Origin: a virus
Lineage: Duplodnaviria > Heunggongvirae > Uroviricota > Caudoviricetes
Length of the DNA: 38,593 nucleotides
Strand: one strand, 5' to 3'
Virus record (IMG/VR): IMGVR_UViG_2778261460_000002
The notes below the pieces were generated by a model. The model searched no databases, was not told the DNA's origin, and saw only the letters and a program-made list of their open reading frames with translations. This document shows positions 1,054 through 33,300 of this stretch, piece after piece. Position numbers and translations under genes: made by a program. The stretch's first letter is position 1, and each line of letters begins with the position of its first letter.

Positions 1054-1077
1054 AAAAAAGCCCTCATATCAGAGGGC
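1054..1077 (-). terminator. Rho-independent terminator on the minus strand (stem gccctc/gagggc followed by a U6 run) abutting the int start codon
   Basis: Plus strand reads aaaaaa-gccctc-atatca-gagggc at 1054-1077; on the minus strand this is a hairpin followed by six U residues, ending at the int ATG (1053). Confidence 0.55.
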
Positions 1078-1136
1078 TAAATTTAACTGTATATACAACC
1101 AGTAATCAATGTGTGATTACTATGAAACATACATTG

Positions 1137-2813
1137 CTAAGCAACATGCAGTTCATCGTTGGCGGAAGTTGCTGCTTTGCGCTCTTGCTCAATCGCCAGT
1201 GACTCTCTATATTCTTTCGCTTCCGCAAACATTGTCCATTGTGCGTTGATGTTCATATCTTCAATAACAGACTTAATTTCTTTAATATTTACGTTGAAAA
1301 ACTCTTTTCGTGAGTTAATTTTATTGACCTGTTTTTCGTTGAAGACTTTATGCAGATGATTTTCTAATGATGGTGCATCATCACTATAAATCATCGCATG
1401 AACATCGAACGAAAAAGGAACACTAGCATCACCGAGTTCACGAACACGATCAAGTGGTTCAAGGCGGCGTGTCATTCCAATTTTATATACATCTTCGCCA
1501 AATGAGCCAATATTACTAATTATATAAACGTGGCCTGATCTAGTTTGTTGAGCCATAGAAATAGCTCGTTGGTTTTTAGCTTCAGCTTCTTCATATTTTA
1601 ACTGTAGTTCAGCTATTTTTTGCTCTAAAGCTAAGCGTTGTTCTTCATTTGCAAGCATAAGCTCTTTTGTTGCTTTATTTATAGCTTGCTGAATAGCTTT
1701 CTCTTCTTTTTCAGCTTCTTTTATCGCTTTTTCATACTCCCTACGAGCTCTTTCCTCTTCACGAAGTTGTTCTTTAATCCTTCTTTGCTCTTCTTTTTCT
1801 TCGAGCATAATTTCATTAACTGCAACTCCCCATTTTAGCTCGTTGAGTCGAGCTTGAAGATAGATGTCACTTATTTTTGCGGACCTAAAGGCAGAACCAT
1901 TGTAATTTACAAGTTGAAACGCATCTTTTATCTCTTGGGAAAGTTTTCCAAAATTGTTGTGTTTGACTTTTGATAAAATACTGTCAACTCTTCCATTGAA
2001 GGCATCTAAAACAAAGTTGATAGCAGTATTACGCCTGTTTTGTTCAACATAATCACACGAAGCAGCTTTATTAGTTTTTATTAATGATTTTGTTAACTCC
2101 CTGGCTTTTTGTAATTCCTTACCTGCATCTGTAAACTCATAATTTTCTGCCAATTCATCGAGAACGCTACGGTTAGGGATGATCCATTCATCACCATAAC
2201 CTTCAATTTTATTTTTCATTGATTTGGCAACTGCTTCATATTTTTCTGCAAACTCTTTAGCTTCATATGCTGAACCAGCAATCTCTTTTGCTCTTTCTTC
2301 TGCATCGGAAATAATTTTCACTGCATTGTCATTAGCATTTGAGATCAGCTCATTTGCTTTACTATTGGCATTATCAAGACGTTCTTTAGCTTTCAGGCGT
2401 GCATCGCGAGCGTCTTTAGTAATTGCTATAGCTTCGCTATTAGCGTTGCTTATTTTTATCTGAGCTTGATAATTTGCTTCGTTTACTGTCTTAGCAGCCT
2501 TTATTTGGGCTTCTTCTATTTTTTGCCTGGCTATTGAGTCTGCATTTTTTATCTTATTCTCTGCTTCCATCACTGCGCTGTGCAATTCTACGTATTGCCA
2601 TAATGGCGCAGCTCGTCCTTCAAGCTCTGATAGATCTCGTACAGTCTGTGCTAATTCTTCTTGATTTTCTTTCAGTTGGTTGGAAAGGGCTATGTTGTTA
2701 GCTGTCAAGGTATTTATAGCCGCTTTATGTTTTTTGCTTTGCTTAAATAATATTACAGCTAGAATGGGGGCGAGAAATGCTAATAAGAATATAACGATGG
2801 AAAATGAATTCAT
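1137..2813 (-). CDS. Membrane-anchored coiled-coil protein with C-terminal T5orf172 (GIY-YIG-like) domain; DUF4041-type architecture; candidate anti-phage/moron gene
   Basis: 558-aa ORF. N-terminal hydrophobic helix (SIVIFLLAFLAPILAVILF), long E/K/A/Q-rich coiled-coil region, C-terminal segment GHVYIISNIGSFGEDVYKIGMTRRLEPLDRVRELG typical of T5orf172. AT-rich relative to the phage backbone. Start codon 20 nt downstream of the cI stop with a GGA Shine-Dalgarno, same strand as cI and int. Confidence 0.7.
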   Translation of the reverse strand: MNSFSIVIFLLAFLAPILAVILFKQSKKHKAAINTLTANNIALSNQLKENQEELAQTVRDLSELEGRAAPLWQYVELHSAVMEAENKIKNADSIARQKIEEAQIKAAKTVNEANYQAQIKISNANSEAIAITKDARDARLKAKERLDNANSKANELISNANDNAVKIISDAEERAKEIAGSAYEAKEFAEKYEAVAKSMKNKIEGYGDEWIIPNRSVLDELAENYEFTDAGKELQKARELTKSLIKTNKAASCDYVEQNRRNTAINFVLDAFNGRVDSILSKVKHNNFGKLSQEIKDAFQLVNYNGSAFRSAKISDIYLQARLNELKWGVAVNEIMLEEKEEQRRIKEQLREEERARREYEKAIKEAEKEEKAIQQAINKATKELMLANEEQRLALEQKIAELQLKYEEAEAKNQRAISMAQQTRSGHVYIISNIGSFGEDVYKIGMTRRLEPLDRVRELGDASVPFSFDVHAMIYSDDAPSLENHLHKVFNEKQVNKINSRKEFFNVNIKEIKSVIEDMNINAQWTMFAEAKEYRESLAIEQERKAATSANDELHVA

Positions 2814-2833
2814 TTTTAAATCCTTTTACTATA

Positions 2834-3430
2834 TTAATTTGAAACTATTGTACTTCTTATACAAGCAACTACTTCAATATCAGAAAATGCACATTCAAAG
2901 CTATTCTCTGTACTTGTAATTTTAATCATACCTTTTGGAAGCTTTGTGATTTTTCGAATGGAATAGGTTCCGTCGATGTTGATTAACCAGTGCCCATCAA
3001 GTACTTCAGAAAATTTTTGATCACAAATGTATGTGACGAGCCCATCCTGAATAACAATTGGTGATGAAAGATTTGCAGGAAGAAATGATGAATCGAAGAC
3101 ATATGAACCATCTTCAATCATTTTGCCTGCGGTAAGGCGAAACTTGGCAAGCTCTTCTGTAGCTGCTGTCAGCGAGCTTTGCTTAAGGCCTTGCCCGGTG
3201 GTTAACCATTTCAGTGAGGTTCCTGTTTCAAGAGCACATTGGATTATCCAGTCTGCAGGAAACGTATCCCGCAAATACCTGTTCGCCAGAGTGCTTTTTG
3301 ATACTTCCAAGTGATCAGCTAAAGCCTGTCGTGTCGTAAAGCCATAAGCTTCGACTAATCGCTCAATCGCAGCCTTACCACCTTTATTGGGATTTATTTT
3401 GATCTCATTTGGGTACTTTGATGTTGACAT
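2834..3430 (-). CDS. cI: Immunity repressor, phage 186 CI-like
   Basis: 198-aa ORF divergent from the apl/cII lytic operon; N-terminal helix-turn-helix-like region, size and position match 186 CI. Confidence 0.7.
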   Translation of the reverse strand: MSTSKYPNEIKINPNKGGKAAIERLVEAYGFTTRQALADHLEVSKSTLANRYLRDTFPADWIIQCALETGTSLKWLTTGQGLKQSSLTAATEELAKFRLTAGKMIEDGSYVFDSSFLPANLSSPIVIQDGLVTYICDQKFSEVLDGHWLINIDGTYSIRKITKLPKGMIKITSTENSFECAFSDIEVVACIRSTIVSN

Positions 3431-9563: not shown

Positions 9564-10175
9564 ATGGATTTAGTCTTTAAAATTCTGGCTTCGTTGGGTG
9601 GGGTGTCTTTTGTTGCATCTGGCATATTTGTTTGGATCGGGAAAGTTTATTTAGAAAGATATAAGTCGCGGCTAAACAAAGATATTGCTGAATTTCAATC
9701 ACAACTGAGTGCAACTAATGAAAGAATAAAGGCTAAGTTAGACAATTCTGTTTATGTAACGAAAGCGTATTTTGATAAGGAGTTATCAGCATATAGTCTC
9801 ATTTGGAATTCGATGTTTGAAACCAGAGAAAGCGTGCTTAAGCTGAGGCCTGCGCTGGATCATTTTGACCCCAACGAACCATTTGAAGAGAGAAAATTTA
9901 GAAGGTTGAAAGTTTTTTTCGATGCATTTAATACTTTTGTTACAAGTGTTGAGTCTAACAAACCGTTCATCTCACCAGAGGTTTATATAATCTTGGACCG
10001 TTTCCGGAAGGAATGCCTTTCAGAGTCAATATCGTTTCAGCATGGCGATCCAGAATTTGACTGGCAAAATTATTGGAAAGAGGCAGAGTTGAACCGTACA
10101 ACCATCACCAAGCTTTTTGATGAGACGTGTGATGCAATTCGAGACAGGATGCACACATTAACTGTGGTTACGTAG
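9564..10175 (+). CDS. Single-pass membrane protein of unknown function; accessory cargo in the old/tin-equivalent position
   Basis: 203-aa ORF with N-terminal hydrophobic helix (ILASLGGVSFVASGIFVWIG) and a soluble domain with no recognisable motifs; AT-rich; own promoter and terminator. Confidence 0.6.
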   Translation: MDLVFKILASLGGVSFVASGIFVWIGKVYLERYKSRLNKDIAEFQSQLSATNERIKAKLDNSVYVTKAYFDKELSAYSLIWNSMFETRESVLKLRPALDHFDPNEPFEERKFRRLKVFFDAFNTFVTSVESNKPFISPEVYIILDRFRKECLSESISFQHGDPEFDWQNYWKEAELNRTTITKLFDETCDAIRDRMHTLTVVT

Positions 10176-10266
10176 TTTTCCAAAAAGTCTCGATGCCCGC
10201 TTTGGCGATTGTGCATGTCTATGCCGCATGAATCCGCATGATCGTTTGAGGATCGTTTTAGCTGAG

Positions 10267-10290
10267 GCCCGCTAGGAATGGCGGGCTTTT
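10267..10290 (+). terminator. Rho-independent terminator (gcccgc-loop-gcgggc-tttt)
   Basis: Perfect 6-bp GC stem with 8-nt loop followed by TTTT, about 90 nt downstream of the 203-aa gene. Confidence 0.55.
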
Positions 10291-10335
10291 GCTTATGTCA
10301 TGCAGGCGCATGAAAACCACTACATAAAGCGGGCA

Positions 10336-10354
10336 GGCGTGGCGGGGATACGAG
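10336..10354. other. Probable cos site (cohesive-end region) GGCGTGGCGGGGATACGAG
   Basis: Matches from memory the start of the P2/186 cohesive end (GGCG[A/T]GGCGGGGA...), with a GCGCGCT tract after it as in P2; lies between the replication side and the portal gene. Not verified by alignment. Confidence 0.45.
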
Positions 10355-10367
10355 CGCGCGCTCATGG

Positions 10368-10396
10368 TTGAATTAATGAAATTATGGTGTTAAATA
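10368..10396 (+). promoter_or_regulatory. Putative sigma70 promoter for the 232-aa gene: -35 TTGAAT (10368-10373), 17-bp spacer, extended -10 TGtTAAATA (10388-10396)
   Basis: Read directly from the sequence; about 70 nt upstream of the ATG at 10465, which has a GGGAGGAG RBS. Confidence 0.45.
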
Positions 10397-10464
10397 GGCT
10401 AGCTTTTTAAGTCGTGAATATTCAATTTTTCAACTCATTTTTTTCATAGGGAGGAGTAATTGAC

Positions 10465-11163
10465 ATGGTTATGTTAGTGGATGACTGTCCACGATGTGGA
10501 TCACAAAAAATAGCGTTTGATGTTAATGGGCTGAATTGCACTAGGGTTTACAATGCATTGGGCGGGGGTAAAACATACGAGTACGAGGTCTATTGTGTTT
10601 GCCGAGAGTGTCATAAAACGACAATGTTTCTTTGCAGACCTTTAACGAAAAATAAAACTTTAGATGGCTATAATTGGAAAAGTGGAATATTCGGCTTAAA
10701 GGAAGTTGCAGAGGTTGTTAGGCCTATATCACCGGCAGACTTAGCAGTAGAGGAGCCACCAGAGTTCTTACCTGAGCATATCAATAGTGCATATGAGGAA
10801 GGGGCGAAATGTTTGGCTATAGGTTGTTATAATGCAGCAGCAACCATGTTTAGGCTTTGCCTTGATTATGCCACAAAAGGACTTCTTCCTGATGGGGAGC
10901 AAGGGCCTGCGCAAAAAATAAGGAGAAGCCTAGGGTTAAGAATGGAGTGGTTATTTGATAATCATCTACTGCCTGAAGCTTTAAGGGAACTAGCTGAATG
11001 CGTTAAAGATGACGGAAATGATGGAGCGCATGAAGGTATTTTGGATAAAGCTGCTGCTGAGGATCTTGAAGATTTTACCTATCTTTTTTTAGAACGGCTT
11101 TACACTGAACCTCAACGCCTTATCGAAGCCAAGACAAGGCGTGAACAAAGAAGAAACAAATAA
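10465..11163 (+). CDS. Zinc-ribbon protein with DUF4145/HEPN-like C-terminal domain; accessory cargo between cos and the portal gene
   Basis: 232-aa ORF; N-terminal CPRC-x35-CRECH Cys cluster; C-terminal helical region with GNDGAHEG resembling the RN..AHG motif of DUF4145 as recalled (arginine replaced). AT-rich, own promoter. Confidence 0.55.
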   Translation: MVMLVDDCPRCGSQKIAFDVNGLNCTRVYNALGGGKTYEYEVYCVCRECHKTTMFLCRPLTKNKTLDGYNWKSGIFGLKEVAEVVRPISPADLAVEEPPEFLPEHINSAYEEGAKCLAIGCYNAAATMFRLCLDYATKGLLPDGEQGPAQKIRRSLGLRMEWLFDNHLLPEALRELAECVKDDGNDGAHEGILDKAAAEDLEDFTYLFLERLYTEPQRLIEAKTRREQRRNK

Positions 11164-19944: not shown

Positions 19945-20796
19945 TTATTTCATTTCGTGTGGCATATTTATGGCTTTAATTTTTTCGTGGTAATGATTAA
20001 ACTCAATATGAGCATTGGTAAAATTAGATTCAAATGTATTCATTAAATTGGAATATAATGATTCATATGATAAGGATACTTTTTTTCCATTTTTTTCTGC
20101 AGTTGTGCTAATGTACCTATGTACTGCAGAAAAAAGAAAATGACCTCTAAGCCACTTTCTGTATTCTATCGATTTTGATTTGAAAGATGAATCGATGTTA
20201 TCTGGTTCCACACCTAATTTTTCAATGATGGTGTTTTTGTAACTCGTGATTTTTTGCTCGCAAATTTCATTTGATTTTCTAGATTTCATGAAACGATCTG
20301 CACTGTCACCAATAACTGAAATGCCTTTTCTATAAATATGATTGTATATATCAAGTTTTATTAGGGGTTCCATTTTGGTATAAAAGTCTTCTGTCCAAGA
20401 ATCGACGTTGACATCGTTCATTATCTTTTGAGGTAATTTTCCGAGAGTTTTTATTGCCTTATATATGCCTGTTTTGTCAATAAACGTGTTTTCGATGGAG
20501 TGCCCATAAGTTTTTACAATGCGACTATCAGCGTTTTCCTCATTTTCAAATGTAGTGAAGTCTGCATCACATGCAATTATAATTTGAAGATCTTCATCAG
20601 TAACTCTATCAATATATTTTTTTAATTCTTCACAGCCGCCAACATCTTTGATTTCAACCTTTAATGAACTAGCTTTATTAAAGATGATTTCCCAAAAGCA
20701 AATATCATCTGGGCCTTCAACATAAACCATGGCTTCAGCTTGGTAAAATAAATTCATTACATTTTCTGCTTCGGCAGAATAATGGAAATCATCCAT
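19945..20796 (-). CDS. DUF4435/Toprim-like nuclease, PARIS AriB-like (OLD-family Toprim fold)
   Basis: Open frame extends to 20880 (311 aa). The ATG at 20796 overlaps the upstream stop as ATGGATGA, so 283 aa is more likely. Toprim-like acidic motifs YVEGPDD and IIACDADF. Very AT-rich. Confidence 0.55.
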   Translation of the reverse strand: MDDFHYSAEAENVMNLFYQAEAMVYVEGPDDICFWEIIFNKASSLKVEIKDVGGCEELKKYIDRVTDEDLQIIIACDADFTTFENEENADSRIVKTYGHSIENTFIDKTGIYKAIKTLGKLPQKIMNDVNVDSWTEDFYTKMEPLIKLDIYNHIYRKGISVIGDSADRFMKSRKSNEICEQKITSYKNTIIEKLGVEPDNIDSSFKSKSIEYRKWLRGHFLFSAVHRYISTTAEKNGKKVSLSYESLYSNLMNTFESNFTNAHIEFNHYHEKIKAINMPHEMK

Positions 20797-22048
20797 GAAC
20801 CAATTTCTCCATATCAAAGATTGCATTTCGATATTTAGAAGCCACTTCTGGTGAATGCGTAGCGGCGATAATTTGCGCATTAGGATTAAGTTGTTTGATT
20901 GCAGGTATTATTTTTCGTTGCCATGCAATATGTAGCGATAATTCTGGTTCATCAGTAAGATAGATGAAAGGTTTGTTTTGCTGTAGCAAAGTTTCAATAA
21001 AAAGAATTAATAGCTGTTTTTCACCAGACGATAAATTACTATGGCTAATCGGCCCATGCTCGTTTTCTATTACTAGCTCACCGGAGATAAAATTAAATTT
21101 TTTATCGGTTATGAACTCATGTAATGTTTCTAAAAATAGATTTATAGGAAGAAATATGTTTTTTATTTTCTCCTCGGATTTTAAAGACATCTTTATAATT
21201 CTTTGCGTCTTTCGTAATGCCTCAAATGATCTGTAATCTACATTTAAAATATTTCTGTTATTTTTTTCTGCAAGTCGTAATTCTTCAAATGTTTTGGCAA
21301 TAGATTCAACGTGAAAGTTAATCTTCTTTCTGACATCACTATCAAAAGCTCCAAGCTGAGAATATGCAGCTATTAAATTTCTACGTTCTTTTTCTTTATC
21401 AAAAGAAAAGTTAAATGTGTCATCGATACCATCTTCTTTACTATAAAGAATAGAAGCAAGAACCTCTTTCTGTAATATTGCAGAAACATCACGAGCTCTT
21501 TGTGATAAATAAAGTTGATATTTTGTTAGGTTCTGCAATAATTGTTCTAATCGGTAATCAACAGGGTTGATTAATTTTGAGCCATATTTGTCTCTGATTT
21601 CAAAATCTTCACCGCTTCTAAGTCGGTAAACTGATAGAGAAGATAAAGCAACTAATTTATCTAACTCTAATTTAAGTTTTTCAACGTCTTCCTGATATTT
21701 TCTCCTCATATAAATAGGTAGTCTACGATCTTCAAAGGATCTGATAATATATTTCTTTCTAGAAATTGTATATTCAAACGTAGGCAAAGCTTTAGTTATG
21801 TCAAATTTACTCACAACTTTTATTGTTTTAGTTTTGCTTCCTTCTTTTATTTTTATTGTTACATTATCAAAACTATTCTCATTTAGTGATTCGAGTTCTA
21901 ATGCCAGAACTGAGTGAAGAATATTCATAAAGGTTGTTTTACCGGTCCCATTTCGACCAATAATAATATTTACATCTTCATTAAATGAACATGATGCATT
22001 TAGTCTTCCCCAAAAACCTTCAATCTTGACACTAGATAATCTAAACAT
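20789..22048 (-). CDS. ABC-type ATPase (AAA_15/AAA_21-like), PARIS AriA-like
   Basis: 419 aa; Walker A GRNGTGKTT, Walker B-like IYLTDEPE, H-loop AATHSPEV; translationally coupled to the downstream DUF4435 gene. Confidence 0.6.
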   Translation of the reverse strand: MFRLSSVKIEGFWGRLNASCSFNEDVNIIIGRNGTGKTTFMNILHSVLALELESLNENSFDNVTIKIKEGSKTKTIKVVSKFDITKALPTFEYTISRKKYIIRSFEDRRLPIYMRRKYQEDVEKLKLELDKLVALSSLSVYRLRSGEDFEIRDKYGSKLINPVDYRLEQLLQNLTKYQLYLSQRARDVSAILQKEVLASILYSKEDGIDDTFNFSFDKEKERRNLIAAYSQLGAFDSDVRKKINFHVESIAKTFEELRLAEKNNRNILNVDYRSFEALRKTQRIIKMSLKSEEKIKNIFLPINLFLETLHEFITDKKFNFISGELVIENEHGPISHSNLSSGEKQLLILFIETLLQQNKPFIYLTDEPELSLHIAWQRKIIPAIKQLNPNAQIIAATHSPEVASKYRNAIFDMEKLVHG

Positions 22049-22102: not shown

Positions 22103-22148
22103 AAACTAAAGAGTTTTTTTATCAATCTTATCTCGGCATGATTAAATT

Positions 22149-22727
22149 ATGAACGCACAATTAACCGAAATCATGCGCCTTATCACCAACCTGATCCGCA
22201 CTGGTGTAGTCACCGAAGTGGACCGGGAACACTGGCTTTGTCGGGTGAAAACGGGCGACCTTGAAACCAACTGGATTAACTGGCTGACGCTGCGCGCGGG
22301 TAATGCCCGCACATGGTGGCGACCATCGGAAGGTGAGCAGGTGGTGCTGCTGAGTCTGGGCGGCAATCTGGAAACCGCCTTTGCGCTGCCCGCTGTCTAT
22401 TCGAATCAGTTCGCACCACCGTCGGCGTCGGTGGACGCCTGTGTGACAGAACATCCTGACGGTGGCTGGTTTGAATACGAACCCGCTACCGGGCGCTGGT
22501 ATGTCAGGGGAATCAAATCCATGGTCATTGAAGCTGCCGACAACATCACCCTGAAAACCAGTGAGTTTGTACTGGAGGCTGACCGCACACGCATTAACAG
22601 CGAAGTAGTGATCAATGGTGGTGTTACCCAGGGCGGCGGTGCAATGAGTTCTAACGGAATTGTGGTTGATGCACATCAGCATACTGGCGTCCTGAAAGGC
22701 GGCGACACAACCGGAGGCCCGGTATGA
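22149..22727 (+). CDS. Baseplate assembly protein V (spike)
   Basis: 192-aa ORF; resembles P2 gpV as recalled (conserved RAGN-RTWW-PS-GEQV region). Confidence 0.75.
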   Translation: MNAQLTEIMRLITNLIRTGVVTEVDREHWLCRVKTGDLETNWINWLTLRAGNARTWWRPSEGEQVVLLSLGGNLETAFALPAVYSNQFAPPSASVDACVTEHPDGGWFEYEPATGRWYVRGIKSMVIEAADNITLKTSEFVLEADRTRINSEVVINGGVTQGGGAMSSNGIVVDAHQHTGVLKGGDTTGGPV

Positions 22728-23083
22728 CGCTTTATAGCGGGATGAACAATACCAGCGGTAAAGCCATTACTGATATTGACCATCTGCGCCAGTCGGTGCG
22801 GGACATTTTGCTGACGCCGCAGGGTAGCCGCATTGCCCGTCGGGAATATGGTTCCCTGCTGTCGGCACTGATAGACCAGCCACAAAATCCGGCATTACGC
22901 CTGCAGGTCATGTCGGCAGTGTATGTGGCGCTGAGTCGCTGGGAGCCACGGCTGACGCTGGATTCCATCACCATTAAAAGCAATTTTGACGGTTCAATGG
23001 TGGTGGGGCTGACCGGGCGGCGTAATAACGGTGTGCCTGTTTCCCTTTCCGTATCAACAGGAGCAGAGAATGGCAGTGATTGA
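22724..23083 (+). CDS. Baseplate protein W (gp25-like wedge)
   Basis: 119-aa ORF after V. Confidence 0.7.
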   Translation: MTLYSGMNNTSGKAITDIDHLRQSVRDILLTPQGSRIARREYGSLLSALIDQPQNPALRLQVMSAVYVALSRWEPRLTLDSITIKSNFDGSMVVGLTGRRNNGVPVSLSVSTGAENGSD

Positions 23084-23978
23084 CCTTTCGCAGTTGCCTG
23101 CGCCGCAGATTGTCGATGTGCCGGACTTTGAGACGCTGCTTGCCGAACGCAAGGCCGAATTTGTTGCGCTTCATCCGAAAGATGAGCAGGAAGCAGTGAT
23201 CCGCACGCTGGAACTGGAATCTGAACCCGTCACCAAATTGTTGCAGGAGAACGCTTACCGTGAGTTGCTTCTGCGCCAGCGCATTAACGAAGCCGCGCAG
23301 GCGGTAATGGTGGCTTACGCGATGGGCGGCGATCTTGACCAGATCGCTGCCAACTACAACGTGAAACGCCTGACGGTGACGCCTGCTGATAATGACGCTG
23401 TGCCGCCCGTTGCGGCTGTGATGGAAAGCGATGAAGCGTTACGCCTGCGTGTGCCTGCAGCCTTTGAGGGGCTTTCAGTTGCGGGGCCAACCGCAGCTTA
23501 TGAATTTCATGCCCGAAGCGCCGACGGTCGGGTGGCGGATGCCAGTGCAACCAGTCCGGCTCCTGCAGAGGTGGTGCTGACTGTCCTTAGCCGCGAAGGC
23601 GACGGAACAGCAGAAAAAGACCTGCTGGATGTGGTGGAAAAAGCTCTGAACAGTGAGAACGTCCGCCCGGTGGCTGACCGTCTTACGGTTCGCAGCGCAG
23701 AAATAATCCCGTATCGCGTGGAAGCCACCATTTTTCTCTATCCGGGACCGGAAGCAGAGCCGGTAATGGCAGCGGCAAAAGCCAGTCTGCAGAAGTACAT
23801 TGCCAGCCAGACGAGGCTTGGTCGGGATATTCGCCGTAGCGCCATCTTTGCTGCTCTGCATGTTGAGGGTGTTCAACGTGTGGAACTGGCTTCTCCGCTG
23901 GCGGATGTGGTCCTGAACAAAACACAGGCGGCATCATGTACGCAGTGGAGCGTAACCAACGGAGGAACGGATGAATAG
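23070..23978 (+). CDS. Baseplate protein J
   Basis: 302-aa product from ATG 23070 (MAVIDLSQLPAP...). Confidence 0.75.
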   Translation: MAVIDLSQLPAPQIVDVPDFETLLAERKAEFVALHPKDEQEAVIRTLELESEPVTKLLQENAYRELLLRQRINEAAQAVMVAYAMGGDLDQIAANYNVKRLTVTPADNDAVPPVAAVMESDEALRLRVPAAFEGLSVAGPTAAYEFHARSADGRVADASATSPAPAEVVLTVLSREGDGTAEKDLLDVVEKALNSENVRPVADRLTVRSAEIIPYRVEATIFLYPGPEAEPVMAAAKASLQKYIASQTRLGRDIRRSAIFAALHVEGVQRVELASPLADVVLNKTQAASCTQWSVTNGGTDE

Positions 23979-24576
23979 TCTGCTGCCACCGGGTTCAACT
24001 TCACTGGAGCGCCGACTGGCGCAAACCTGTAGCGGGATTTCTGATTTGCAGGTGCCGCTGCGTGACTTGTGGAATCCGGCTACCTGTCCGGTCAGCTTCC
24101 TGCCTTATCTCGCCTGGGCGTTCTCTGTGGATCGCTGGGACGAGGGCTGGACAGAAAGCGTCAAACGCCAGGTAGTGAAGGATGCTTTTTATATTCATCA
24201 GCATAAAGGAACCACCAGTGCCGTGCGGCGGGTGGTGGAACCGTTCGGATTCCTGATCCGCATTATTGAGTGGTGGCAGACCGGAGAAACACCGGGCACG
24301 TTTCGCCTGGATATCGGCGTGCAGGACCAGGGCATCACTGAAGATACCTATCTGGAACTTGAGCGACTGATAAGCGATGCCAAACCATGTAGCCGCCACA
24401 TGATCGGCATGTCCATCAATCTGCAGACCAGCGGCCCGCATTGGGTGGGAGCCGCCAGCTATCTTGGCGAAGAAATCACGATCTATCCGTATATCAACGA
24501 AACGATTATTTCCGGTGGCACCGCGCATGAAGGCGGGGCGGTCCATGTTATTGACACAATGAGAGTGAATCCATGA
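23971..24576 (+). CDS. Baseplate/tail protein I
   Basis: 201-aa ORF between J and the tail fibre gene. Confidence 0.7.
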   Translation: MNSLLPPGSTSLERRLAQTCSGISDLQVPLRDLWNPATCPVSFLPYLAWAFSVDRWDEGWTESVKRQVVKDAFYIHQHKGTTSAVRRVVEPFGFLIRIIEWWQTGETPGTFRLDIGVQDQGITEDTYLELERLISDAKPCSRHMIGMSINLQTSGPHWVGAASYLGEEITIYPYINETIISGGTAHEGGAVHVIDTMRVNP

Positions 24577-25916
24577 GCACAAAATTTTATACCCTGCTGA
24601 CGGATATTGGCGCGGCGAAACTTGCCAGCGCCGCCGCGCTCGGTGTGCCGCTAAAAATTACCTATATGGCGGTGGGCGATGGCGGTGGAGTATTGCCAAC
24701 GCCGGACGCAAAGCAGACGGCACTGGTAAATGAGAAACGCCGGGCTGCGCTGAATATGCTTTATATCGACCCGCAGAACAGCAGCCAGATTATTGCCGAA
24801 CAGGTGATCCCTGAAAACGAGGGCGGTTGGTGGATACGTGAAGTGGGCTTGTTTGATGAGTCCGGGGCATTGATTGCTGTGGGCAACTGCCCGGAAAGCT
24901 ATAAGCCGCAACTGGCTGAAGGTAGCGGGCGCACTCAGACCGTGCGCATGGTGCTGATTACCAGCAGCACGGTCAATATCACCCTGAAAATCGACCCTGC
25001 TGTAGTGCTGGCAACCCGCAAGTATGTGGATGACAAGGCACTGGAGCTGAAGGTGTACGCGGATGATCAGATGGCAAAACATCTTGCCGCACCGGACCCG
25101 CATTCACAGTACGCGCCAAAAGCCAGCCCGACATTTACCGGAACCCCCAAAGCGCCAACGCCAGCGGCGGGGAATAATACCACGCAGGTTGCGACCACTG
25201 CGTTTGTACAGGCGGCACTGACGGCCCTTATTAATGGTACGCCAGCCACGCTGGACACGCTGAAAGAAATAGCCGCAGCCATTAACAATGATCCGAATTT
25301 CAGTACCACCATTAACAATGCGCTGGCACTTAAAGCACCGTTGTCGAGTCCGGCACTCACCGGAACGCCAACAGCCCCCACGGCGGCGCAGTCGGTCAAC
25401 AATACACAGATTGCCACTACGGCTTTTGTGAAATCGGCGATTGCAGGAATGGTGGGTTCTGCACCTGCTGCACTGGATACACTGAACGAACTGGCGGCGG
25501 CACTGGGGAATGATCCGAACTTTGCCACGACAATGCTTAATGCGCTGGCAGGTAAACAACCGCTGGACAATACGCTTACCAATTTGAGTGGAAAGGATGT
25601 AGCTGGTCTTCTCACATACCTTGGTTTTGGAGAAGGTGCTAACTGGGTTATGTTACCTGGAGGAATGATAATTCAGCGTGTTTATCTTGGATTTCCTATT
25701 GGCACCAATGCAAGACACATAACTTTCCCCCGGTCGTTTACAACAACGAACTATTCCATCTCAATTAACTGGAATGATATCGGTACTGTAACAACTGAAA
25801 CACAATCACCAGCAAATGTGGCGGTTGTTCATCAAACAAAATCATTAACAGGGGCCAGCATCTGGCAGGCAGGTCCCGGGGGATTTAATGTGGACATTAT
25901 AGCGGTGGGGTATTGA
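24573..25916 (+). CDS. Tail fibre protein H; the C-terminal ~94 codons lie inside the invertible segment
   Basis: 447-aa ORF with repeated [11 protein letters not shown] / [11 protein letters not shown] motifs; contains a hix/gix-like crossover site at 25609-25634. Confidence 0.8.
25609..25634 (+). repeat. hix/gix-like 26-bp recombination site (left): TTCTCACATACC TT GGTTTTGGAGAA
   Basis: Right half GGTTTTGGAGAA matches 11 of 12 positions of the gix right half as recalled; 2-bp core TT. Confidence 0.6.
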
Positions 25917-25917
25917 T

Positions 25918-26346
25918 ATGTACGTATGGAGCGCTAAATCAAATGGCTTTTTCCCCATATCGGAGAAAGAAAAATTTGAGGCATCAGGTCTGTGGCCTGA
26001 TGATGGTGTAATAGTCAGTGAGGAAGAACATAAAAAGTTATTTATGGATATTCCACCAGGAAAACAGATTGGAACACTGAATGGAAAACCAGCACTGATA
26101 GATATTCCTCAGCCGACCAAAAAGGAATTAATAGCTATTGCTGAAGTTAAAAAATCCCAATTACGGGAAAAAGCTGACAGTGAAATATCCTGGCGTCAGG
26201 ATGCTGTTGATGCTGATATCGCAACTGATGAAGAAACTTCAACTCTCACCGAATGGAAGAAATACCGTGTGCTGCTGATGCGTGTTGATACTTCAACAGC
26301 ACCCGATATTGAATGGCCTACGCCTCCGGCAGTTCAGGCCAGATGA
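25918..26346 (+). CDS. Tail fibre assembly protein (P2 gpG / Tfa-like), current-orientation copy
   Basis: 142 aa, C-terminal [13 protein letters not shown] shared with the inverted copy. Confidence 0.7.
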
Positions 26347-26911
26347 CATCCGGCGCGGTGCTGGTATCTGTTGCCGTCACCGCGTCAATGTAATCCAGCA
26401 CGGTGTTAAGTCGGGTTGTTTCTGCCTGAGTCAGTTTCCGTCCGGCCTGTAATTTCAGCTGAATCAGACTAATGGAAGCCATTACTGCATCAATCAGTGA
26501 CTGGCGCTGTGCTTCTGCTGCTTCTACTGCGGCACCGTGTTGTGCCTCAGTATCTGTCACCCATTTCTCACCATCCCATTTATCATATGGCGTTAACGGT
26601 GAAAGCGTGACATAACCGTTTTTGATGGCACCGATATAATCCACTGTAACAGCTGCGCCATTTTCTGTTGAGTAAACAGTCTCATTGCGATGGTCTTCTT
26701 CATGGCTCCATCCCTTACCCGTAAATACTGCCACTTTCCCCGGAATGTTTTCGCCCGGGTCAATACCAGTGGAACAGGCGGGCATACTTACGCCAGTATT
26801 AATATATTCATCAGACCAGCCCGTATATTCAGACGTTACTGCATCATAATAAAAACAACGCATATCACCCGGCACTGTAGCCAGTCCATTTTCATCAAAA
26901 ACAGGTTTCAT
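26318..26911 (-). CDS. Alternative tail fibre assembly protein (Tfa'), inverted-orientation copy
   Basis: 197 aa on the minus strand, C-terminal [14 protein letters not shown]. Confidence 0.65.
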
Positions 26912-27408
26912 TATTTAGCCCTCACCAGAAAGTTAAATGCAATATTTCGCGGTCTGACAGCAACAAAATTCACACCATCACCCACAGAGTTACTGGTGAA
27001 ATTAAATCGTGAAAATCCTGGCTGATTTCCGGCGATGCCATCATGAAAGTTAATTGCGTGTCCCGCACCTCCGCCTATATTCCCGGCAAACTGAGAAAAG
27101 TTTGTAGCTTCCTGCCAGCTTAATAATTCGCGACCACCGTCTGCACCTCGCCCGTCATCCCAGATACGAATGAAATCACCGCGGGCTTCAGGTAATATCA
27201 GCGAAGGAAACACTTTCGCCAGCACAGGATAATCAGTGGCAGAGAATTTCGCGCCGTTGAACTTCAAAAACACCATACTGGACCAGCTGTCGATTACAGT
27301 ATTTGGCATTGCAGCGGACGGCCAGAAGAACGGAACGCCAATAGCTGGAGCACCTTCTCCCAAACCAACGTTTATGAAAATGCAGAGATAACGGCTAACT
27401 GGCATCAT
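26911..27408 (-). CDS. Alternative tail-fibre C-terminal cassette (H'), promoterless, expressed only after inversion
   Basis: Minus-strand frame open through the right hix-like site; my frame arithmetic shows it joins H in frame after inversion about the 2-bp cores. Confidence 0.55.
   Translation of the reverse strand: MMPVSRYLCIFINVGLGEGAPAIGVPFFWPSAAMPNTVIDSWSSMVFLKFNGAKFSATDYPVLAKVFPSLILPEARGDFIRIWDDGRGADGGRELLSWQEATNFSQFAGNIGGGAGHAINFHDGIAGNQPGFSRFNFTSNSVGDGVNFVAVRPRNIAFNFLVRAK
27355..27380 (+). repeat. hix/gix-like 26-bp recombination site (right, inverted): TTCTCCCAAACC AA CGTTTATGAAAA
   Basis: Reverse complement TTTTCATAAACG TT GGTTTGGGAGAA aligns with the left site at about 21 of 26 positions with the same TT core. 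Confidence 0.55.
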
Positions 27409-27435
27409 CCCCGGTTTTTATTCAGGGGATTGATC

Positions 27436-28002
27436 ATGCTTATTGGCTATGTACGCGTGTCAACAAATGACCAGAACACCGATTTGCAACGTAATGCACT
27501 GAACTGCGCGGGATGTGAGCGGATTTTTGAGGACAAAATCAGTGGCACTAAGTCCGACAGACCGGGGCTGAAAAAACTACTCAGGACACTATCGGCAGGA
27601 GACACGCTGGTTGTCTGGAAGCTGGACAGGTTGGGGCGCAGTATGCGGCATCTTGTTACGCTGATAGAAGAGTTGCGCCAGCGTGGTGTGAATTTCAGAA
27701 GCCTGACTGACAGTATTGATACCAGTACCCCAATGGGCCGTTTCTTTTTTCATGTCATGGGTGCCCTGGCTGAAATGGAACGCGAACTGATAGTTGAACG
27801 TACCAGGGCAGGGCTGGCTGCAGCTCGTGCCAAAGGCAGAGTAGGTGGACGCCGTCCTAAGTTGACCACCGAACAGTGGGCACAGATTGGGCGTTTACTC
27901 GAGGCCGGAGAATCAAGACAGCGTATTGCACTGATTTTTGATGTAGGCGTTTCTACCATTTATAGAAAATTTCCGGCAAATAAGATCAATGAATCCCCCT
28001 GA
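27436..28002 (+). CDS. Serine recombinase, DNA invertase of the Hin/Gin/Cin/Pin family
   Basis: 188-aa product from ATG 27436 (MLIGYVRVSTNDQ...); catalytic serine context YVRVST, C-terminal helix-turn-helix; adjacent to the invertible segment. Confidence 0.85.
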   Translation: MLIGYVRVSTNDQNTDLQRNALNCAGCERIFEDKISGTKSDRPGLKKLLRTLSAGDTLVVWKLDRLGRSMRHLVTLIEELRQRGVNFRSLTDSIDTSTPMGRFFFHVMGALAEMERELIVERTRAGLAAARAKGRVGGRRPKLTTEQWAQIGRLLEAGESRQRIALIFDVGVSTIYRKFPANKINESP

Positions 28003-28050
28003 ATCAGCATTATGTTGATTATCCCTGCAAGCAGACAAATACCGTTATTT

Positions 28051-28068
28051 TGTGTGAATAACGACACA
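28051..28068 (+). promoter_or_regulatory. P2-type late promoter activator site TGT-N12-ACA upstream of FI
   Basis: TGT gtgaataacgac ACA, 77 nt upstream of the FI ATG. Confidence 0.5.
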
Positions 28069-28144
28069 ACTGCGCTTAGCTGTTTGTCAGGCACAATCAC
28101 TTCAACATAGGGCGAAGCCTAATCCAATCAGGAGGTTCGCCACT

Positions 28145-29317
28145 ATGGCTCAGGATTACCACCACGGGGTGCGCGTTGTTGAAGTCAACGAAGGCACCCG
28201 ATCTATTACCACGGTGAGCACCGCCATCGTGGGTATGGTCTGCACGGGCGATGATGCCGATGCAAAAATGTTTCCTCTTAATAAACCCGTGCTGATCACT
28301 GATGTGCTGACTGCCAGCGGTAAAGCGGGTGAGTCAGGTACTCTGGCCCGTTCGCTGGATGCCATCGCTGACCAGGCAAAACCCGTGACCATTGTTGTGC
28401 GTGTGCCGCAGGGTGAAACGGAAGACGAAACCACGACCAATATCATCGGCGCAGTGACCGCTGAAGGTAAAAAAACAGGTATGAAAGCCCTGTTATCTGC
28501 CCAGTCACAGCTCGGCGTTAAACCGCGCATTCTCGGCGTGCCAGGCCACGACACCAAGGCGGTAGCTACTGAGTTGCTGAGCGTGGCGCAAAGCCTGCGT
28601 GGATTTGCTTACCTGTCAGCGTATGGCTGCAAGACAGTGCAGGAGGCGATCACTTACCGCGAAAACTTCAGCCAGCGCGAAGGGATGCTGATCTGGCCTG
28701 ACTTTACTGGCTGGGACACGGTGCTGAATGCCGAAGCAACGGCATATGCCACCGCCCGTGCGCTTGGTCTGCGCGCCAAAATTGACGAGCAGACCGGATG
28801 GCACAAAAGCCTGTCCAACGTGGGCGTGAACGGTGTCACCGGAATTTCTGCAGATGTGTTCTGGGATCTGCAGGACCCGGCAACCGATGCAGGTCTGCTG
28901 AACCAGAACGACGTCACCACGCTTGTGCGTAAAGACGGTTTCCGCTTCTGGGGTTCCCGCTGCCTGAGTGATGACCCGCTCTTTGCCTTCGAAAACTACA
29001 CCCGCACGGCGCAGGTGCTGATGGACACGATGGCAGAAGCACACATGTGGGCGGTGGATAAACCGCTTAACCCGTCGCTGGCCCGCGACATTATCGAAGG
29101 TATCCGCGCCAAAATGCGCAGCCTGGTCAGTCAGGGCTATCTCATTGGTGGTGATTGCTGGCTGGATGAGTCGGTGAACGACAAAGACACGCTGAAAGCC
29201 GGAAAACTCACCATCGACTACGACTACACGCCAGTGCCGCCACTTGAAAACCTGATGCTGCGTCAGCGCATCACCGATCAGTACCTGGTGAATTTCGCCA
29301 GCCAGGTCAGCGCGTAA
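28145..29317 (+). CDS. Tail sheath protein (P2 gpFI-like)
   Basis: 390-aa ORF preceding the tail tube gene. Confidence 0.8.
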
Positions 29318-29326
29318 GGGGACAAC

Positions 29327-29842
29327 ATGGCTTTACCACGCAAATTAAAACACCTGAACCTGTTTAACGACGGGAACAACTGGCAGGGGATCGTTGAGTC
29401 GCTGACGCTGCCGAAATTTACCCGCAAATATGAGAAGTATCGCGGCGGCGGAATGCCGGGTGCGGTGGATGTGGATCTGGGGCTTGATGACAGTGCGCTG
29501 GACACAGAATTTTCCATTGGTGGTACTGAATTGCTGCTGTTTAAACAGATGGGTAAAGCCACGGTGGATGGCATCCAGCTGCGCTTTACCGGCTCTATTC
29601 AGCGTGACGATACCGGGGAAGTGCAGGCCGTGGAGCTTGTCGTGCGTGGACGTCACAAAGAAGTGGATTCCGGCGAGTGGAAGACGGGCGAAAGCAACAC
29701 GACCAAAGTGACCAGTACCAACAGCTACGCGAAGCTGACCATCAATGGTGAGGTGCTCTATGAAGTGGACCTTATCAACATGGTGGAAATTGTGGACGGT
29801 GTGGACCTGATGGAAGCGCACCGCAACGCCCTCGGCCTCTGA
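29327..29842 (+). CDS. Tail tube protein (P2 gpFII-like)
   Basis: 171-aa ORF after the sheath gene. Confidence 0.8.
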   Translation: MALPRKLKHLNLFNDGNNWQGIVESLTLPKFTRKYEKYRGGGMPGAVDVDLGLDDSALDTEFSIGGTELLLFKQMGKATVDGIQLRFTGSIQRDDTGEVQAVELVVRGRHKEVDSGEWKTGESNTTKVTSTNSYAKLTINGEVLYEVDLINMVEIVDGVDLMEAHRNALGL

Positions 29843-29896
29843 TATATCTGAACGGCGCGGGATACCGCGCCAGAACCCAATTGACAGGACAGTAAA

Positions 29897-30199
29897 ATGA
29901 GCGATAAGCAGACTGAAAAGACTATTCAACTGGATACCCCCATCAAGCGCGGTAAAACAGAAATCACCGAAATTGTGCTGCGTAAACCGCAGTCTGGTGC
30001 GCTACGCGGTACACGCCTGCAGGCCATTATGGATATGGATGTGAACGCGATGATGACCGTGATCCCCCGCATCTCCAGCCCGGCACTGACTGCACAGGAA
30101 ATTGCAGAGATGGACCCGGCAGATCTCACTGCCATGTCGGTTGAGGTTGTCACTTTTTTGTTGAAGAAGTCGGTGCTTGCCGGTTTACCGACAGCCTGA
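29897..30199 (+). CDS. Tail assembly chaperone E
   Basis: 100-aa ORF containing the TTTTTTG slippery heptamer near its 3' end. Confidence 0.7.
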   Translation: MSDKQTEKTIQLDTPIKRGKTEITEIVLRKPQSGALRGTRLQAIMDMDVNAMMTVIPRISSPALTAQEIAEMDPADLTAMSVEVVTFLLKKSVLAGLPTA

Positions 30200-30333
30200 C
30201 GGTTGACGATCTGGTGGCAGATATCGCCACCATTTTTCACTGGCCGCCATCCGTTACTGACGTTATGCCGCTGACCGAAGTGCTGGAATGGCGGTATAAA
30301 GCGATTCAGAGAAGCGGGGCCAACGATGAGTGA
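29897..30333 (+). CDS. E+E' fusion produced by programmed -1 ribosomal frameshift at TTTTTTG (30154-30160)
   Basis: After a -1 slip at the heptamer the -1 frame stays open for 58 codons (FVEEVGACRFTDSL...LEWRYKAIQRSGANDE) and stops at 30331-30333, overlapping the T start at 30326. Confidence 0.6.
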
Positions 30334-33300
30334 TAACAACCTGCGTCTGCAGGTCATTCTTAATGCGGTTGACAAACTCACCCGCCCATTCCGTGCTGCA
30401 CAGGCCAGTTCGAAAGAGCTGGCTGGCGCAATTCAGAATACCAGAAACAGCCTCAAAGAACTGAATAAGCAGGCTGGCAGAATTGATGAGTTTCGCAAGA
30501 CGCGCTCGCAACTAGCCATAACAGCCAACAACCTGAACGCAGCCCGCGAAGAGGCGGCAAAACTCGCCACACAATTTGCTGCCACTAACAGGCCAACCGC
30601 CGCGCAGGCAAAGTTATTCAGTCAGGCCAAAACACGAGTACAGGAACTTCAGCAGACCTATAACGGCTTGGTGGGGGCGGTCCAGAGACAACGTCAGGCA
30701 CTTAAAGAATCAGGGATTGATACCAGGCAACTCAGTAGTGCCCAGCGAGAACTTAAGAAAAATGCTGAAGAAACAAGGCAGGCACTGGAGGGCCAGCAAA
30801 AAGCACTTAAACGTCTGGGTGAACAACAGGCACGGATGAACGCTGCCAGAGAACAATACTCAAGACGGCTTGAAGTGCGCGATCGTATCGCAGGAGCCGG
30901 AGCCACCACCACGGCTGCAGGGCTGGCAATGGGCGCGCCAGTGATGGCGGCGGTAAAAAGCTATACCAGCATGGAAGATGCCATGAAAGGTGTGGCAAAG
31001 CAGGTCAATGGTCTGCGTGACGATAATGGCAACCGCACTGCGCGTTTTTACGAAATGCAGGATGCCATCAAGGCTGCCAGCGAACAGTTGCCGATGGAAA
31101 ACGGTGCGGTGGACTTCGCTGCACTGGTTGAAGGTGGTGCGCGCATGAACGTGGCAAACCCTGACGACAGCTGGGAAGACCAGAAACGTGACCTGCTGGC
31201 CTTCGCCAGTACGGCAGCAAAGGCGGCAACAGCCTTTGAGCTGCCAGCGGATGAACTGTCAGAAAGTCTGGGGAAAATCGCCCAGCTCTACAAAATACCT
31301 ACCCGCAATATTGAACAGCTCGGCGATGCGCTGAACTATCTGGATGATAACGCCATGTCGAAAGGGGCGGACATCATTGATGTGATGCAACGTCTGGGCG
31401 GTGTGGCTGACCGTCTGGATTATCGTAAAGCGGCGGCACTGGGTTCCACCTTTCTGACACTGGGCGCTGCGCCGGAGGTTGCAGCCAGTGCAGCAAACGC
31501 GATGGTGCGTGAATTGTCCATTGCCACCATGCAAAGCAAGAGTTTCTTTGAAGGGATGAATCTGCTGAAACTCAATCCTGAAGTGATTGAAAAGCAGATG
31601 ACGAAGGATGCGATGGGAACCATCCAGCGTGTACTGGAGAAGGTGAACGCACTGCCGCAGGACAAGCGTCTGTCTGCCATGACCATGTTGTTTGGTAAAG
31701 AGTTTGGCGATGACGCGGCGAAACTGGCAAACAACCTGCCGGAACTACAGCGCCAGCTAAAACTGACAGCGGGCAATGATGCGCTCGGTTCGATGCAGAA
31801 AGAATCCGACATCAACAAAGACTCACTTTCTGCTCAGTGGTTGCTGGTCAAAACCGGAGCGCAGAACACCTTCAGCAGCCTGGGCGAAACGCTGCGCCAG
31901 CCGCTGATGGATATTCTGTACACGGTGAAAAGCGTCACGGGGGCGTTGCGTCGCTGGGTGGAAGCTAACCCGGAACTGACAGGCACACTGATGAAAGTAG
32001 CGGCTGTTGTGGCTGCGGTTACCGTAGGCCTCGGCACCTTAGCGGTGGCGCTGGCTGCAGTGCTGGGGCCGCTGGCAGTGATCCGTCTGGGATTCTCTGT
32101 GCTGGGTATCAAAACGTTACCTTCCGTTACGGCAGCAGTAACCCGAACCAACAACGCGGTGTCCTGGCTGGCAGGCGCACCACTGGCAGTGCTGCGACGC
32201 GGGCTTGCTTCATCGGGTAACGCAGCGGGTTTACTTACTGCGCCGTTGTCGTCTTTGCGCCGTACGGCATCACTGACGGGAAATGTCCTGAAAACTGTAG
32301 CAGGTGCGCCGGTTGCACTATTGCGGTCTGGATTATCCGGTTTACGTGCTGTTGCTGTGATGTTTGTGAATCCTCTGGCGGTACTGCGCGGTGGACTGGC
32401 TGCCGCAGGCGTGGTGCTTCGTGTGCTGGCATCCGGTCCGCTGGCGATGCTGCGCGTTGCCCTGTATGCCATATCTGGTCTGTTAGGTGCTCTGCTCAGT
32501 CCGATAGGTCTTGTGGTTACTGCACTGGCGGGCGTGGCGCTGGTTGTCTGGAAATACTGGCAACCCATCACCGCATTTCTCGGTGGCGTGGTGGAAGGAT
32601 TCAAAGCGGCGGCAGGTCCCATCAGTGCCGCATTCGAACCACTTAAGCCCGTGTTTCAGTGGATTGGTGACAAAGTGCAGGCTCTGTGGGGCTGGTTTAC
32701 TGATCTGCTGACGCCCGTTAAGTCGACCTCTGTCGAACTGCAGAGCGCAGCGGCAATGGGGCGACGATTCGGGGAGGCACTGGCGGAAGGGCTGAATATG
32801 GTCATGCATCCGCTGGACTCCCTGAAATCCGGCGTTTCCTGGTTGCTGGAGAAACTCGGCATTATCAGTAAAGAGGCTGCAAAGGCGAAACTGCCGGAAA
32901 GCGTGACGCGTCAGCAACCCGCAACAGTGAATGCAGACGGCAAAGTGATGATGCCATCAGGTGGTTTTCCGTCATGGGGATATGGCTTTGCGGGGATGTA
33001 TGACAGCGGCGGGTATATCCCGCGCGGGCAGTTTGGCATCGTCGGTGAAAACGGGCCGGAAATTGTTAACGGCCCGGCAAATGTGACCAGCCGGAGAAAT
33101 ACAGCTGCACTGGCTGCCGTTGTTGCCGGAATGATGGGCGTTGCTGCCGCGCCAGTAGAGCTTCCACCGTTGCATCCTTTGGCGCTTCCCGCGAAAGGCG
33201 GTGAAGCGATGGTGAGTCGCGCAGCTGCTGTGCCGCCCGTTCAACGGATTGAGGCACCGACGCAGATCATCATTCAGACGCAGCCAGGACAAAGTGCGCA

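Follow-up and report, generated by a model that had tools for sequence, protein, structure and literature searches.

The 38,593-nucleotide stretch of DNA analysed here (the window) carries a locus that, with a probability of roughly 0.9, is an inversion switch of the Din family (Hin/Gin/Cin/Pin), by which a P2-like prophage sets the receptor-binding tip of its tail fibre. The locus has the architecture of a host-range switch, with a constant fibre N-terminus, two C-termini on opposite strands that each have their own chaperone, and fusions that are in frame for both. Two crossover sites bound the switching segment, and an intact invertase gene lies just outside it.

The element is a P2-like (Peduoviridae) prophage of E. 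coli. The window is collinear with annotated prophages of this type; its late genes run in the P2 order Q P / O N M L X ... R S V W J I H G / FI FII E T U D ogr, and positions 1-3430 encode an integrase and a CI repressor. DNA identity of the sheath gene is 70% to P2 FI and 99.8% to Escherichia phage 500465-1 (Wadgaonvirus). The prophage looks complete, with its late operon intact. No tRNA or tmRNA gene is found in the window; a related prophage (L005) adjoins ssrA. Between G and FI, phage P2 carries fun(Z) and has no invertase, in agreement with the original prediction that the switching module is missing from P2. The prophage also carries PARIS-like and PD-Lambda-1-like defence cargo.

The tail-fibre gene H (24573-25916, plus strand) encodes 447 amino acids and has a Pfam Phage_tail_fib N-terminus (1.4e-63). 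Codons 1-350 (24573-25620, plus strand), which hold this N-terminal domain, lie outside the invertible segment and form the constant part of the fibre. The segment itself spans ~1.75 kb from core to core (25621-27368) and has the opposite orientation in L005, which is otherwise collinear with the window. In the present orientation it supplies a 97-residue variable C-terminus (25623-25916, plus strand) with a gp53-like C domain (Pfam Gp53-like_C, 1.8e-4), a match whose 22.4 bits fall under the Pfam gathering score of 24.9; RefSeq homologues of this tip are annotated as gp53-like domain-containing proteins. One nucleotide past the H stop begins tfa (25918-26346, plus strand), a 142-residue tail-fibre assembly gene (Caudo_TAP, 7.4e-34; phrog_188, 3.9e-55). 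A second assembly gene of 197 residues, tfa' (26318-26911, minus strand; Caudo_TAP, 4.6e-27; phrog_105, 1.6e-83), overlaps tfa by 29 bp at its 3' end and is co-oriented with H only after inversion. The silent alternative C-terminus of H (26911-27366, minus strand) comprises 151 residues and has a tip of the Mu S / P1 S type. Pfam returned no match for this cassette, and it was therefore placed by PHROGs (phrog_3100, 6e-52; phrog_523, tail collar fibre, 4e-41). Both tips would serve in receptor binding, a role that rests on their PHROG families and on homology.

Inverting 25621-27368 in silico gives an uninterrupted 501-residue H' in frame with the constant part, and the stop codon of H' then overlaps the start of tfa' (TAATG). 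Along its whole length H' shares 81% identity with the 502-residue H of phage 500465-1, and a PDB sequence search with it returns just a repeat-region match to 9d93. Both the cassette content of the two strands, here assigned by Pfam and PHROG domains, and the in-frame joining of the alternative cassette to constant H had been put forward in the original prediction, and they hold.

The segment is bounded by the one outstanding inverted repeat that a repeat finder reports, 25609-25640 and 27349-27380, with 32-nucleotide arms that are 84% complementary and spaced by 1708 nucleotides. A scan of the 38.6-kb window with the consensus TTCTCNNAAACCNNGGTTTNNGAGAA, allowing up to 3 mismatches, matches only 25609-25634 (1 mismatch) and 27355-27380 (2 mismatches), and dinucleotide-preserving shuffles, which give the chance level, yield 0.00 expected matches. 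No third crossover site occurs in the window at up to 5 mismatches. The left 26-bp site (25609-25634, plus strand), TTCTCACATACC-TT-GGTTTTGGAGAA, has its TT core at 25621-25622 inside H codon 350; the right site (27355-27380, plus strand), TTCTCCCAAACC-AA-CGTTTATGAAAA, has its AA core at 27367-27368. These core positions are supported by the register: in the same 26-bp frame, positions 13-14 coincide with the crossover points annotated for Mu gix and P1 cix. TT and AA are one asymmetric dinucleotide read in opposite directions, the arrangement needed for inversion. The half-sites are symmetric at 9 of 12 positions in the left site and 8 of 12 in the right, so that the pair has the form of Din-family sites: two imperfectly palindromic 26-bp sequences, inverted, with a common asymmetric 2-bp core. 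The original prediction had named inverted 26-bp sites related to those of Hin and Gin, with these positions and cores, and both the repeat finder and the consensus scan agree with it. The alignment with known systems that it had proposed as a check shows 17-21 of 26 positions shared with the Mu and P1 sites.

The presumed recombinase is encoded at 27436-28002 on the plus strand, just outside the segment. It is an intact 188-residue small serine recombinase with catalytic Ser9 (Resolvase, 2.2e-53) and a C-terminal helix-turn-helix (HTH_7, 1.4e-15). Din-family recombinases are marked by these parts, with the serine at about residue 9-10 of an N-terminal resolvase catalytic domain; an adjacent invertase had likewise been part of the original prediction. 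The protein shares 85% identity with PinE, 79% with Cin and 74% with Gin, and it matches the solved Gin structures 3UJ3 (1e-92) and 4M6F (about 1e-92). Ser9 and the YVRVSTxxQ motif around it do not vary between this protein, PinE and Gin, and all residues that are invariant among PinE, Gin and their relatives are kept. A shufflon, with an Rci tyrosine recombinase and at least three sfx sites, was considered and rejected: the recombinase is of the serine type and the window has two sites.

Inversion by this enzyme probably depends on Fis bound to a recombinational enhancer. In the Gin, Cin and Hin systems such an enhancer acts in cis, has two Fis sites and sits in the 5' part of the gene for the invertase. 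The putative enhancer in the window lies inside the invertase gene near its 5' end (27454-27525, plus strand) and corresponds to cin nucleotides 19-90, annotated in the P1 record as the C-segment inversion enhancer. Identity there is 56 of 72 positions to P1 (78% DNA) and 63 of 72 to K-12 pinE, in a region that is also coding-constrained. A scan of the invertase 5' end for the Fis motif GNNYAWWWWWTRNNC returns weak, non-discriminating matches, for which reason the enhancer is assigned by homology.

Comparison between genomes indicates that the segment inverts by exchange at the core. A database search finds the segment flipped in silico in one piece, at 100% coverage and 98.6% identity. The complete genome of E. 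coli S1-CAM-01-A holds a 96-99% identical prophage that runs collinear with the window from 22148 to 25640 and from 27349 to 30425 and in which 25621-27380 is inverted, with breakpoints inside both sites. The outer half-sites are unmoved; a T/G polymorphism that marks the inner ones shows these to have been swapped, which confines the crossover to TTGGTTT at 25621-25627, 7 bp including the core. Both the predicted 501-residue H' and the reciprocal 111-residue junction reading frame are on record, exactly, in public assemblies, and many genomes carry a gene annotation for the latter. Of 5426 complete E. coli genomes, some have the window's type of left junction and others the flipped type.

Differences in orientation could also arise from RecA-dependent exchange between short inverted repeats, or from errors of assembly, rather than from site-specific recombination. 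The 32-nucleotide repeats are 84% matched, and inverted repeats can confuse assemblers. Such an origin is nonetheless extremely improbable: uninterrupted identity extends over just 12-13 bp, much too short a stretch for RecA to recombine efficiently, and in a closed, complete genome the crossover is placed within the 7 bp surrounding the core. Moreover, a dedicated invertase lies alongside, and the same sites in the e14 element of K-12 invert in an invertase-dependent manner, with pinE and pinE pinQ mutants locked (PMC12529663).

A site-specific switch may nevertheless have stopped working. The prophage could retain the architecture and be locked in the gp53-like orientation, supposedly through weak sites, failure to express the invertase or loss of the enhancer. 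The sites do depart from the consensus at specified positions, one in the left site and two in the right, and in one relative (L001) the invertase is frameshifted and dead, so that such switches do decay in some relatives. Furthermore, left junctions of the window's own type are the rarer ones, found in 5 of 5426 complete E. coli genomes against 46 with the flipped type. Against this, the invertase reading frame is intact and its product 99.5% identical to that of the isolated phage 500465-1, the right site has the sequence of the experimentally active e14 site, and exact flipped products of the window's allele in other assemblies argue that the lineage flipped recently. A locked switch is accordingly improbable, and flipping presumably occurs within this very isolate.

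An operating Din-family switch would work as follows. Late transcription through V-W-J-I-H would read the fixed 350-codon N-terminus of H and then the segment from the left site onward. The present orientation would yield the 447-residue H with its gp53-like tip and the 142-residue Tfa chaperone; the inverted orientation would yield the 501-residue H' with a tip like that of Mu S and P1 S, and the 197-residue Tfa'. This pattern of expression is probable for the two orientations. The 188-residue invertase would bind both 26-bp sites, probably assemble with the Fis-bound enhancer in its own 5' coding region, cleave each of them at its 2-bp core (TT/AA), rotate and religate. Through such switching, lysogen populations would hold both orientations and release two types of virion with different host ranges. 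The difference in host range and the receptor specificities behind it are suggested by homology.

The nearest relative of the system is the e14 Pin system. The P segment of e14 in K-12 (stfP-tfaP / tfaE-stfE / pinE) has its parts in an order identical to that of the window: constant fibre N-terminus, site, cassette with tfa, tfa' with the second cassette, site and invertase. Its right site, beside pinE, is identical to that of the window at 26 of 26 positions and its left site at 21 of 26, and the tail-to-tail overlap of the tfa genes is the same 29 bp. The right site of the window includes the experimentally defined e14 repeat CCTTCTCCCAAACCAA (PMC12529663), and qPCR has shown that PinE and PinQ carry out inversion at the e14 sites (PMC12529663). 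However, e14 is a defective lambdoid element, whereas the host element in the window is a complete P2-like myovirus prophage. What K-12 e14 has in common with the window is limited to the sites, the 3'-terminal 316 bp of tfa' and the invertase gene, which is 81% identical as DNA; its cassettes are otherwise not recognisably similar at the DNA level. A description of the segment as 95% e14 was therefore rejected, because the matches behind it are pinE-annotated loci in other strains, one of which (L004) has the cassette pair of the window, 94% identical. The relatedness to Hin and Gin that was originally proposed thus stands for the family (Hin/Gin/Cin/Pin type) and gives way to e14 Pin for the closest system.

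The Mu G / Gin and P1 C / Cin systems likewise agree with the window in build, mechanism and logic: S/U genes alternate with S'/U' genes, the gix or cix sites are 26 bp long with a core of 2 bp, and the invertase gene lies directly outside the segment, with an enhancer, putative in the window, near its 5' end. The core is TT in the window, P1 and e14 and TC in Mu. The segment is shorter in the window, 1.75 kb versus 3 kb in Mu and 4.2 kb in P1, and in contrast to these phages the variable part of the fibre comprises just 97 or 151 residues, and of its two tips one is gp53-like and not S-type.

Other P2-like elements (prophages of EPEC E2348/69, Salmonella Fels-2 and phage 500465-1) have an invertible module in the same slot, from G to FI. 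In EPEC P2-like prophages co-existing orientations were found by sequencing and PCR, and one such prophage has three repeats giving four variants (PMC4272514), compared with two sites at the locus in the window. Fels-2, with the invertase fin, is a further P2-like example, for which co-existing orientations were inferred (PMC7953296). Phage 500465-1 has a constant part of H and an invertase that are 99% identical to those of the window, with H at 99.2% DNA identity up to position 25636, but carries a different cassette pair.

The reading frame at the right junction suggests a second possible use of the switch. The alternative minus-strand reading frame now begins at an ATG at 27408, outside the segment and 28 nucleotides past the right site, and this ATG is in frame with the cassette next to it in either orientation; the reading frame encodes 165 residues at present and 111, with the gp53-like tip, after a flip. 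The P segment of e14, once inverted, is reported to give rise to StfE2, a product that blocks adsorption of T2 (PMC12529663). By analogy, the product from 27408 might be made as a free tip that masks the receptor and blocks superinfecting phages, and the main selected effect of inversion would then lie in the lysogen rather than in the virion. The window is arranged like e14 in this respect, and the 111-residue form is the one annotated as a gene in many genomes. In addition, the cassette pair recurs at L004 in a defence island beside Avs2, and there is other defence cargo on the prophage in the window. However, a promoter scan detects no sigma-70-like promoter on the minus strand upstream of 27408, and a GGGG run abuts the ATG, a poor Shine-Dalgarno spacing. 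Around the sites the promoter and terminator scan is uninformative, with 2 promoter-like matches versus 5.1 expected, neither of them near 27408. The original prediction had called the alternative cassette promoterless; this agrees with the scan upstream of its ATG and is presumed for the cassette as a whole. Because the prophage is complete, with an intact late operon, the classical role in virion host range is sufficient, and lysogen defence would be at most an add-on. Defence as the main selected effect is highly improbable, and it is improbable that the host-range switch doubles as a lysogen-side toggle of phage defence through a free, receptor-masking tip.

For annotation, the 447-residue H, the two tfa genes and the 'partial' tail protein belong together as a single functional unit. 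The orientation of the segment in an assembly is a snapshot, and the silent cassette is not to be annotated as a pseudogene. For phage biology the locus adds little, as invertase-driven switching of tail fibres has been known since Mu, P1 and e14, and inversion in P2-like prophages has already been published for EPEC E2348/69 and Fels-2. Modestly useful are the mosaic joints between the window and related phages, as with phage 500465-1, which lie at the crossover sites and illustrate the swapping of receptor-binding cassettes between unrelated elements.

The switch region begins on the plus strand with tail-fibre gene H (24573–25916, 447 aa; N-terminus Pfam Phage_tail_fib, 1.4e-63) and its assembly gene tfa (25918–26346, 142 aa; Caudo_TAP, 7e-34). 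Convergent on the minus strand are a second assembly gene, tfa' (26318–26911, 197 aa; Caudo_TAP, 5e-27), and a tail-fibre C-terminal cassette (26911–27366) that matches PHROG tail-fibre and tail-collar families (6e-52 and 4e-41) and has no match in a Pfam search. As sequenced, the cassette ORF extends to an ATG at 27408. A plus-strand recombinase gene (27436–28002, 188 aa; Pfam Resolvase, 2e-53, and HTH_7, 1e-15) and then the tail sheath gene (28145–29317) follow. Invertase-driven tail-fibre switching is textbook knowledge for Mu, P1, and e14, and a classical switch of this kind is the best-supported explanation of the region, with a probability of about 0.9. The original prediction of an invertible tail-fibre segment, made from sequence alone, is correct, as borne out by crossover sites, reading frames, protein families, and natural flipped alleles. 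The tail-to-tail overlap of tfa and tfa' spans 29 bp (26318–26346), and the identical overlap is annotated in K-12 e14, in three other comparison loci (L001, L002, and L003), and in the P2-like prophage of E. coli S1-CAM-01-A (L005), despite differing cassettes.

The strongest inverted repeat of the region pairs 25609–25640 with 27349–27380 (32 nt, 84% complementary). With up to three mismatches, the Din-type consensus TTCTCNNAAACCNNGGTTTNNGAGAA occurs in the whole 38.6-kb window only at 25609–25634 and 27355–27380, with 0.00 matches in shuffled sequence; a scan allowing five mismatches finds no third crossover site. When the same 26-bp register is laid on the annotated Mu and P1 records, positions 13–14 fall exactly on the Mu G-segment boundaries and the P1 cix crossover points, and the cores proposed earlier, TT at 25621–25622 and AA at 27367–27368, are therefore well founded. 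TT and AA are one asymmetric dinucleotide read in opposite orientations, as inversion requires of the two cores. The right site is identical at 26/26 positions to the K-12 e14 site beside pinE and contains CCTTCTCCCAAACCAA, a repeat at which e14 inversion has been demonstrated experimentally (PMC12529663). The left site contains TTGGTTTTGGAGAAGG, one base off the other e14 repeat.

Within H codon 350, core position 25621 supplies the second base. With 25621–27368 inverted in silico, the reading frame runs without interruption to give a 501-aa H (H'), so the alternative cassette does join in frame as claimed. The H' stop overlaps the tfa' ATG (TAATG), mirroring the tight H–tfa coupling of the present orientation. 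The H of Escherichia phage 500465-1, a sequenced phage, is 502 aa long and aligns with the whole of H' at 81% identity; the fusion is thus a normal full-length fibre.

The segment has flipped in nature. Flipped in silico, the 2.6-kb stretch aligns in one piece over 100% of its length, at 98.6% identity, with E. coli S1-CAM-01-A (NZ_CP145714.1), where the locus is a P2-like prophage adjoining ssrA. That prophage is collinear with the window over 22148–25640 and 27349–30425 and inverted over 25621–27380. At base level the outer half-sites are unmoved, while the inner half-sites, which differ (T or G) five bases inward of the core, are swapped, placing the exchange within TTGGTTT (25621–25627), core included. 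That inversion by RecA or an assembly artefact accounts for the pattern is extremely improbable. The exact 501-aa H' predicted from core exchange is found in a public assembly, the exact 111-aa reciprocal right-junction ORF lies on nine contigs in public assemblies, and present-orientation assemblies 99.9% identical to the window also exist. In a set of 5426 complete E. coli genomes, 5 have a window-type left junction and 46 a flipped-type one. A draft contig 99.94% identical to the window (GCA_039299295.1) ends at window position 26878, inside the segment and close to the tfa' 5' end; the break could reflect a repeat common to other prophages or mixed orientations.

The recombinase is 85% identical to K-12 PinE, 79% to P1 Cin, 74% to Mu Gin, and 99.5% to the invertase of 500465-1. 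It matches solved Gin structures at ~1e-92 and keeps Ser9 and all residues invariant across the PinE/Gin comparison set. The chance that the prophage carries a frozen relic, a switch architecture no longer operating, is small given an intact invertase, a right site identical to the experimentally active one of e14, and recorded sequences of the exact flipped products of the window allele. The P1 record annotates an inversion enhancer at cin nucleotides 19–90, and the homologous stretch at 27454–27525 (56/72 identical to P1, 63/72 to pinE) is no more than a putative enhancer, because the stretch is also coding and a Fis-motif scan of the invertase 5' end is not discriminating. A hairpin resembling a terminator, with a T run after it (27397–27416, plus strand), stands between the right crossover site and the start codon of the invertase gene and might limit late-operon read-through into that gene.

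In the proposed mechanism, late transcription would read the constant 350 H codons and then whichever cassette faces them. One orientation would give the 447-aa fibre with a gp53-like tip and the 142-aa Tfa, the other the 501-aa fibre with an S-type tip and the 197-aa Tfa'. Inversion by the invertase, probably helped by Fis at the enhancer, would occur at low frequency, so that a lysogen population would release two virion types. Such expression, receptor specificity, and Fis dependence are presumed, as is flipping in the source culture. The short ORF from 27408 might have a lysogen-defence role, for which e14 StfE2 is an analogue (PMC12529663); this is quite unlikely, as the ORF has no promoter-like site that could be found and its Shine-Dalgarno spacing is poor.

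The window represents a prophage of the P2-like group (Peduoviridae), nearest to Wadgaonvirus 500465-1; integrase and CI repressor genes occupy the left end, and the right end carries a host permease gene. The switch was said to be missing from P2 itself, whose G–FI slot indeed holds fun(Z), without an invertase. P2-like precedents include EPEC E2348/69 prophages, in which both orientations co-exist by sequencing and PCR (PMC4272514), and Fels-2 with fin, for which they are described (PMC7953296). RefSeq already contains annotations of near-identical loci, and the window locus is one more, well-supported example of an established switch type.

On either side of the cassettes, up to 25636 and from 27354 onward, the window is 99% identical to 500465-1; the cassettes themselves differ. 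A pinE-annotated locus of E. coli FDAARGOS_1077 (L004; NZ_CP068155.1) matches at 94% from exactly 25609 across the segment into the invertase gene (to 27884). These mosaic joints coincide with the crossover sites and are consistent with cassette exchange between elements there. At L004 3392–6345, the same cassette pair (94% identical) lies, without the constant fibre gene, between two inverted pinE-annotated invertase genes beside an Avs2 defence gene, a layout common to many ETEC-like genomes. The 3' part of tfa' (26284–26599, 316 bp) is ~91% identical in K-12 e14, L001, and 500465-1 (inverted in the last), and outside it their cassettes are unrelated to the window's at the DNA level; cassettes may be shuffled by recombination at this internal point.

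Other cargo is also present. A low-GC (~30%) 2.3-kb minus-strand insertion between tail genes S and V (19945–22048), missing from the otherwise collinear S1-CAM-01-A prophage, encodes an ATPase of 419 aa (AAA_15/AAA_21; AriA-like, 5.7e-40) and a protein of 311 aa (DUF4435; AriB-like, 3e-24), which by these matches form a PARIS-like anti-phage pair. Between the integrase (1–1053) and CI repressor (2834–3430) genes, a low-GC (~36%) minus-strand gene (1137–2813) encodes 558 aa matching PADLOC PD-Lambda-1 (4.7e-120) and Pfam DUF4041 and T5orf172/MUG113, matches that mark it as a second, predicted defence-type cargo gene. Upstream of the portal gene, a variable plus-strand region (9564–11163) differs from that of S1-CAM-01-A; it contains a 203-aa ORF without any family match and also encodes a DUF4145 protein (232 aa) that weakly matches PD-T7-4 (1.2e-6).
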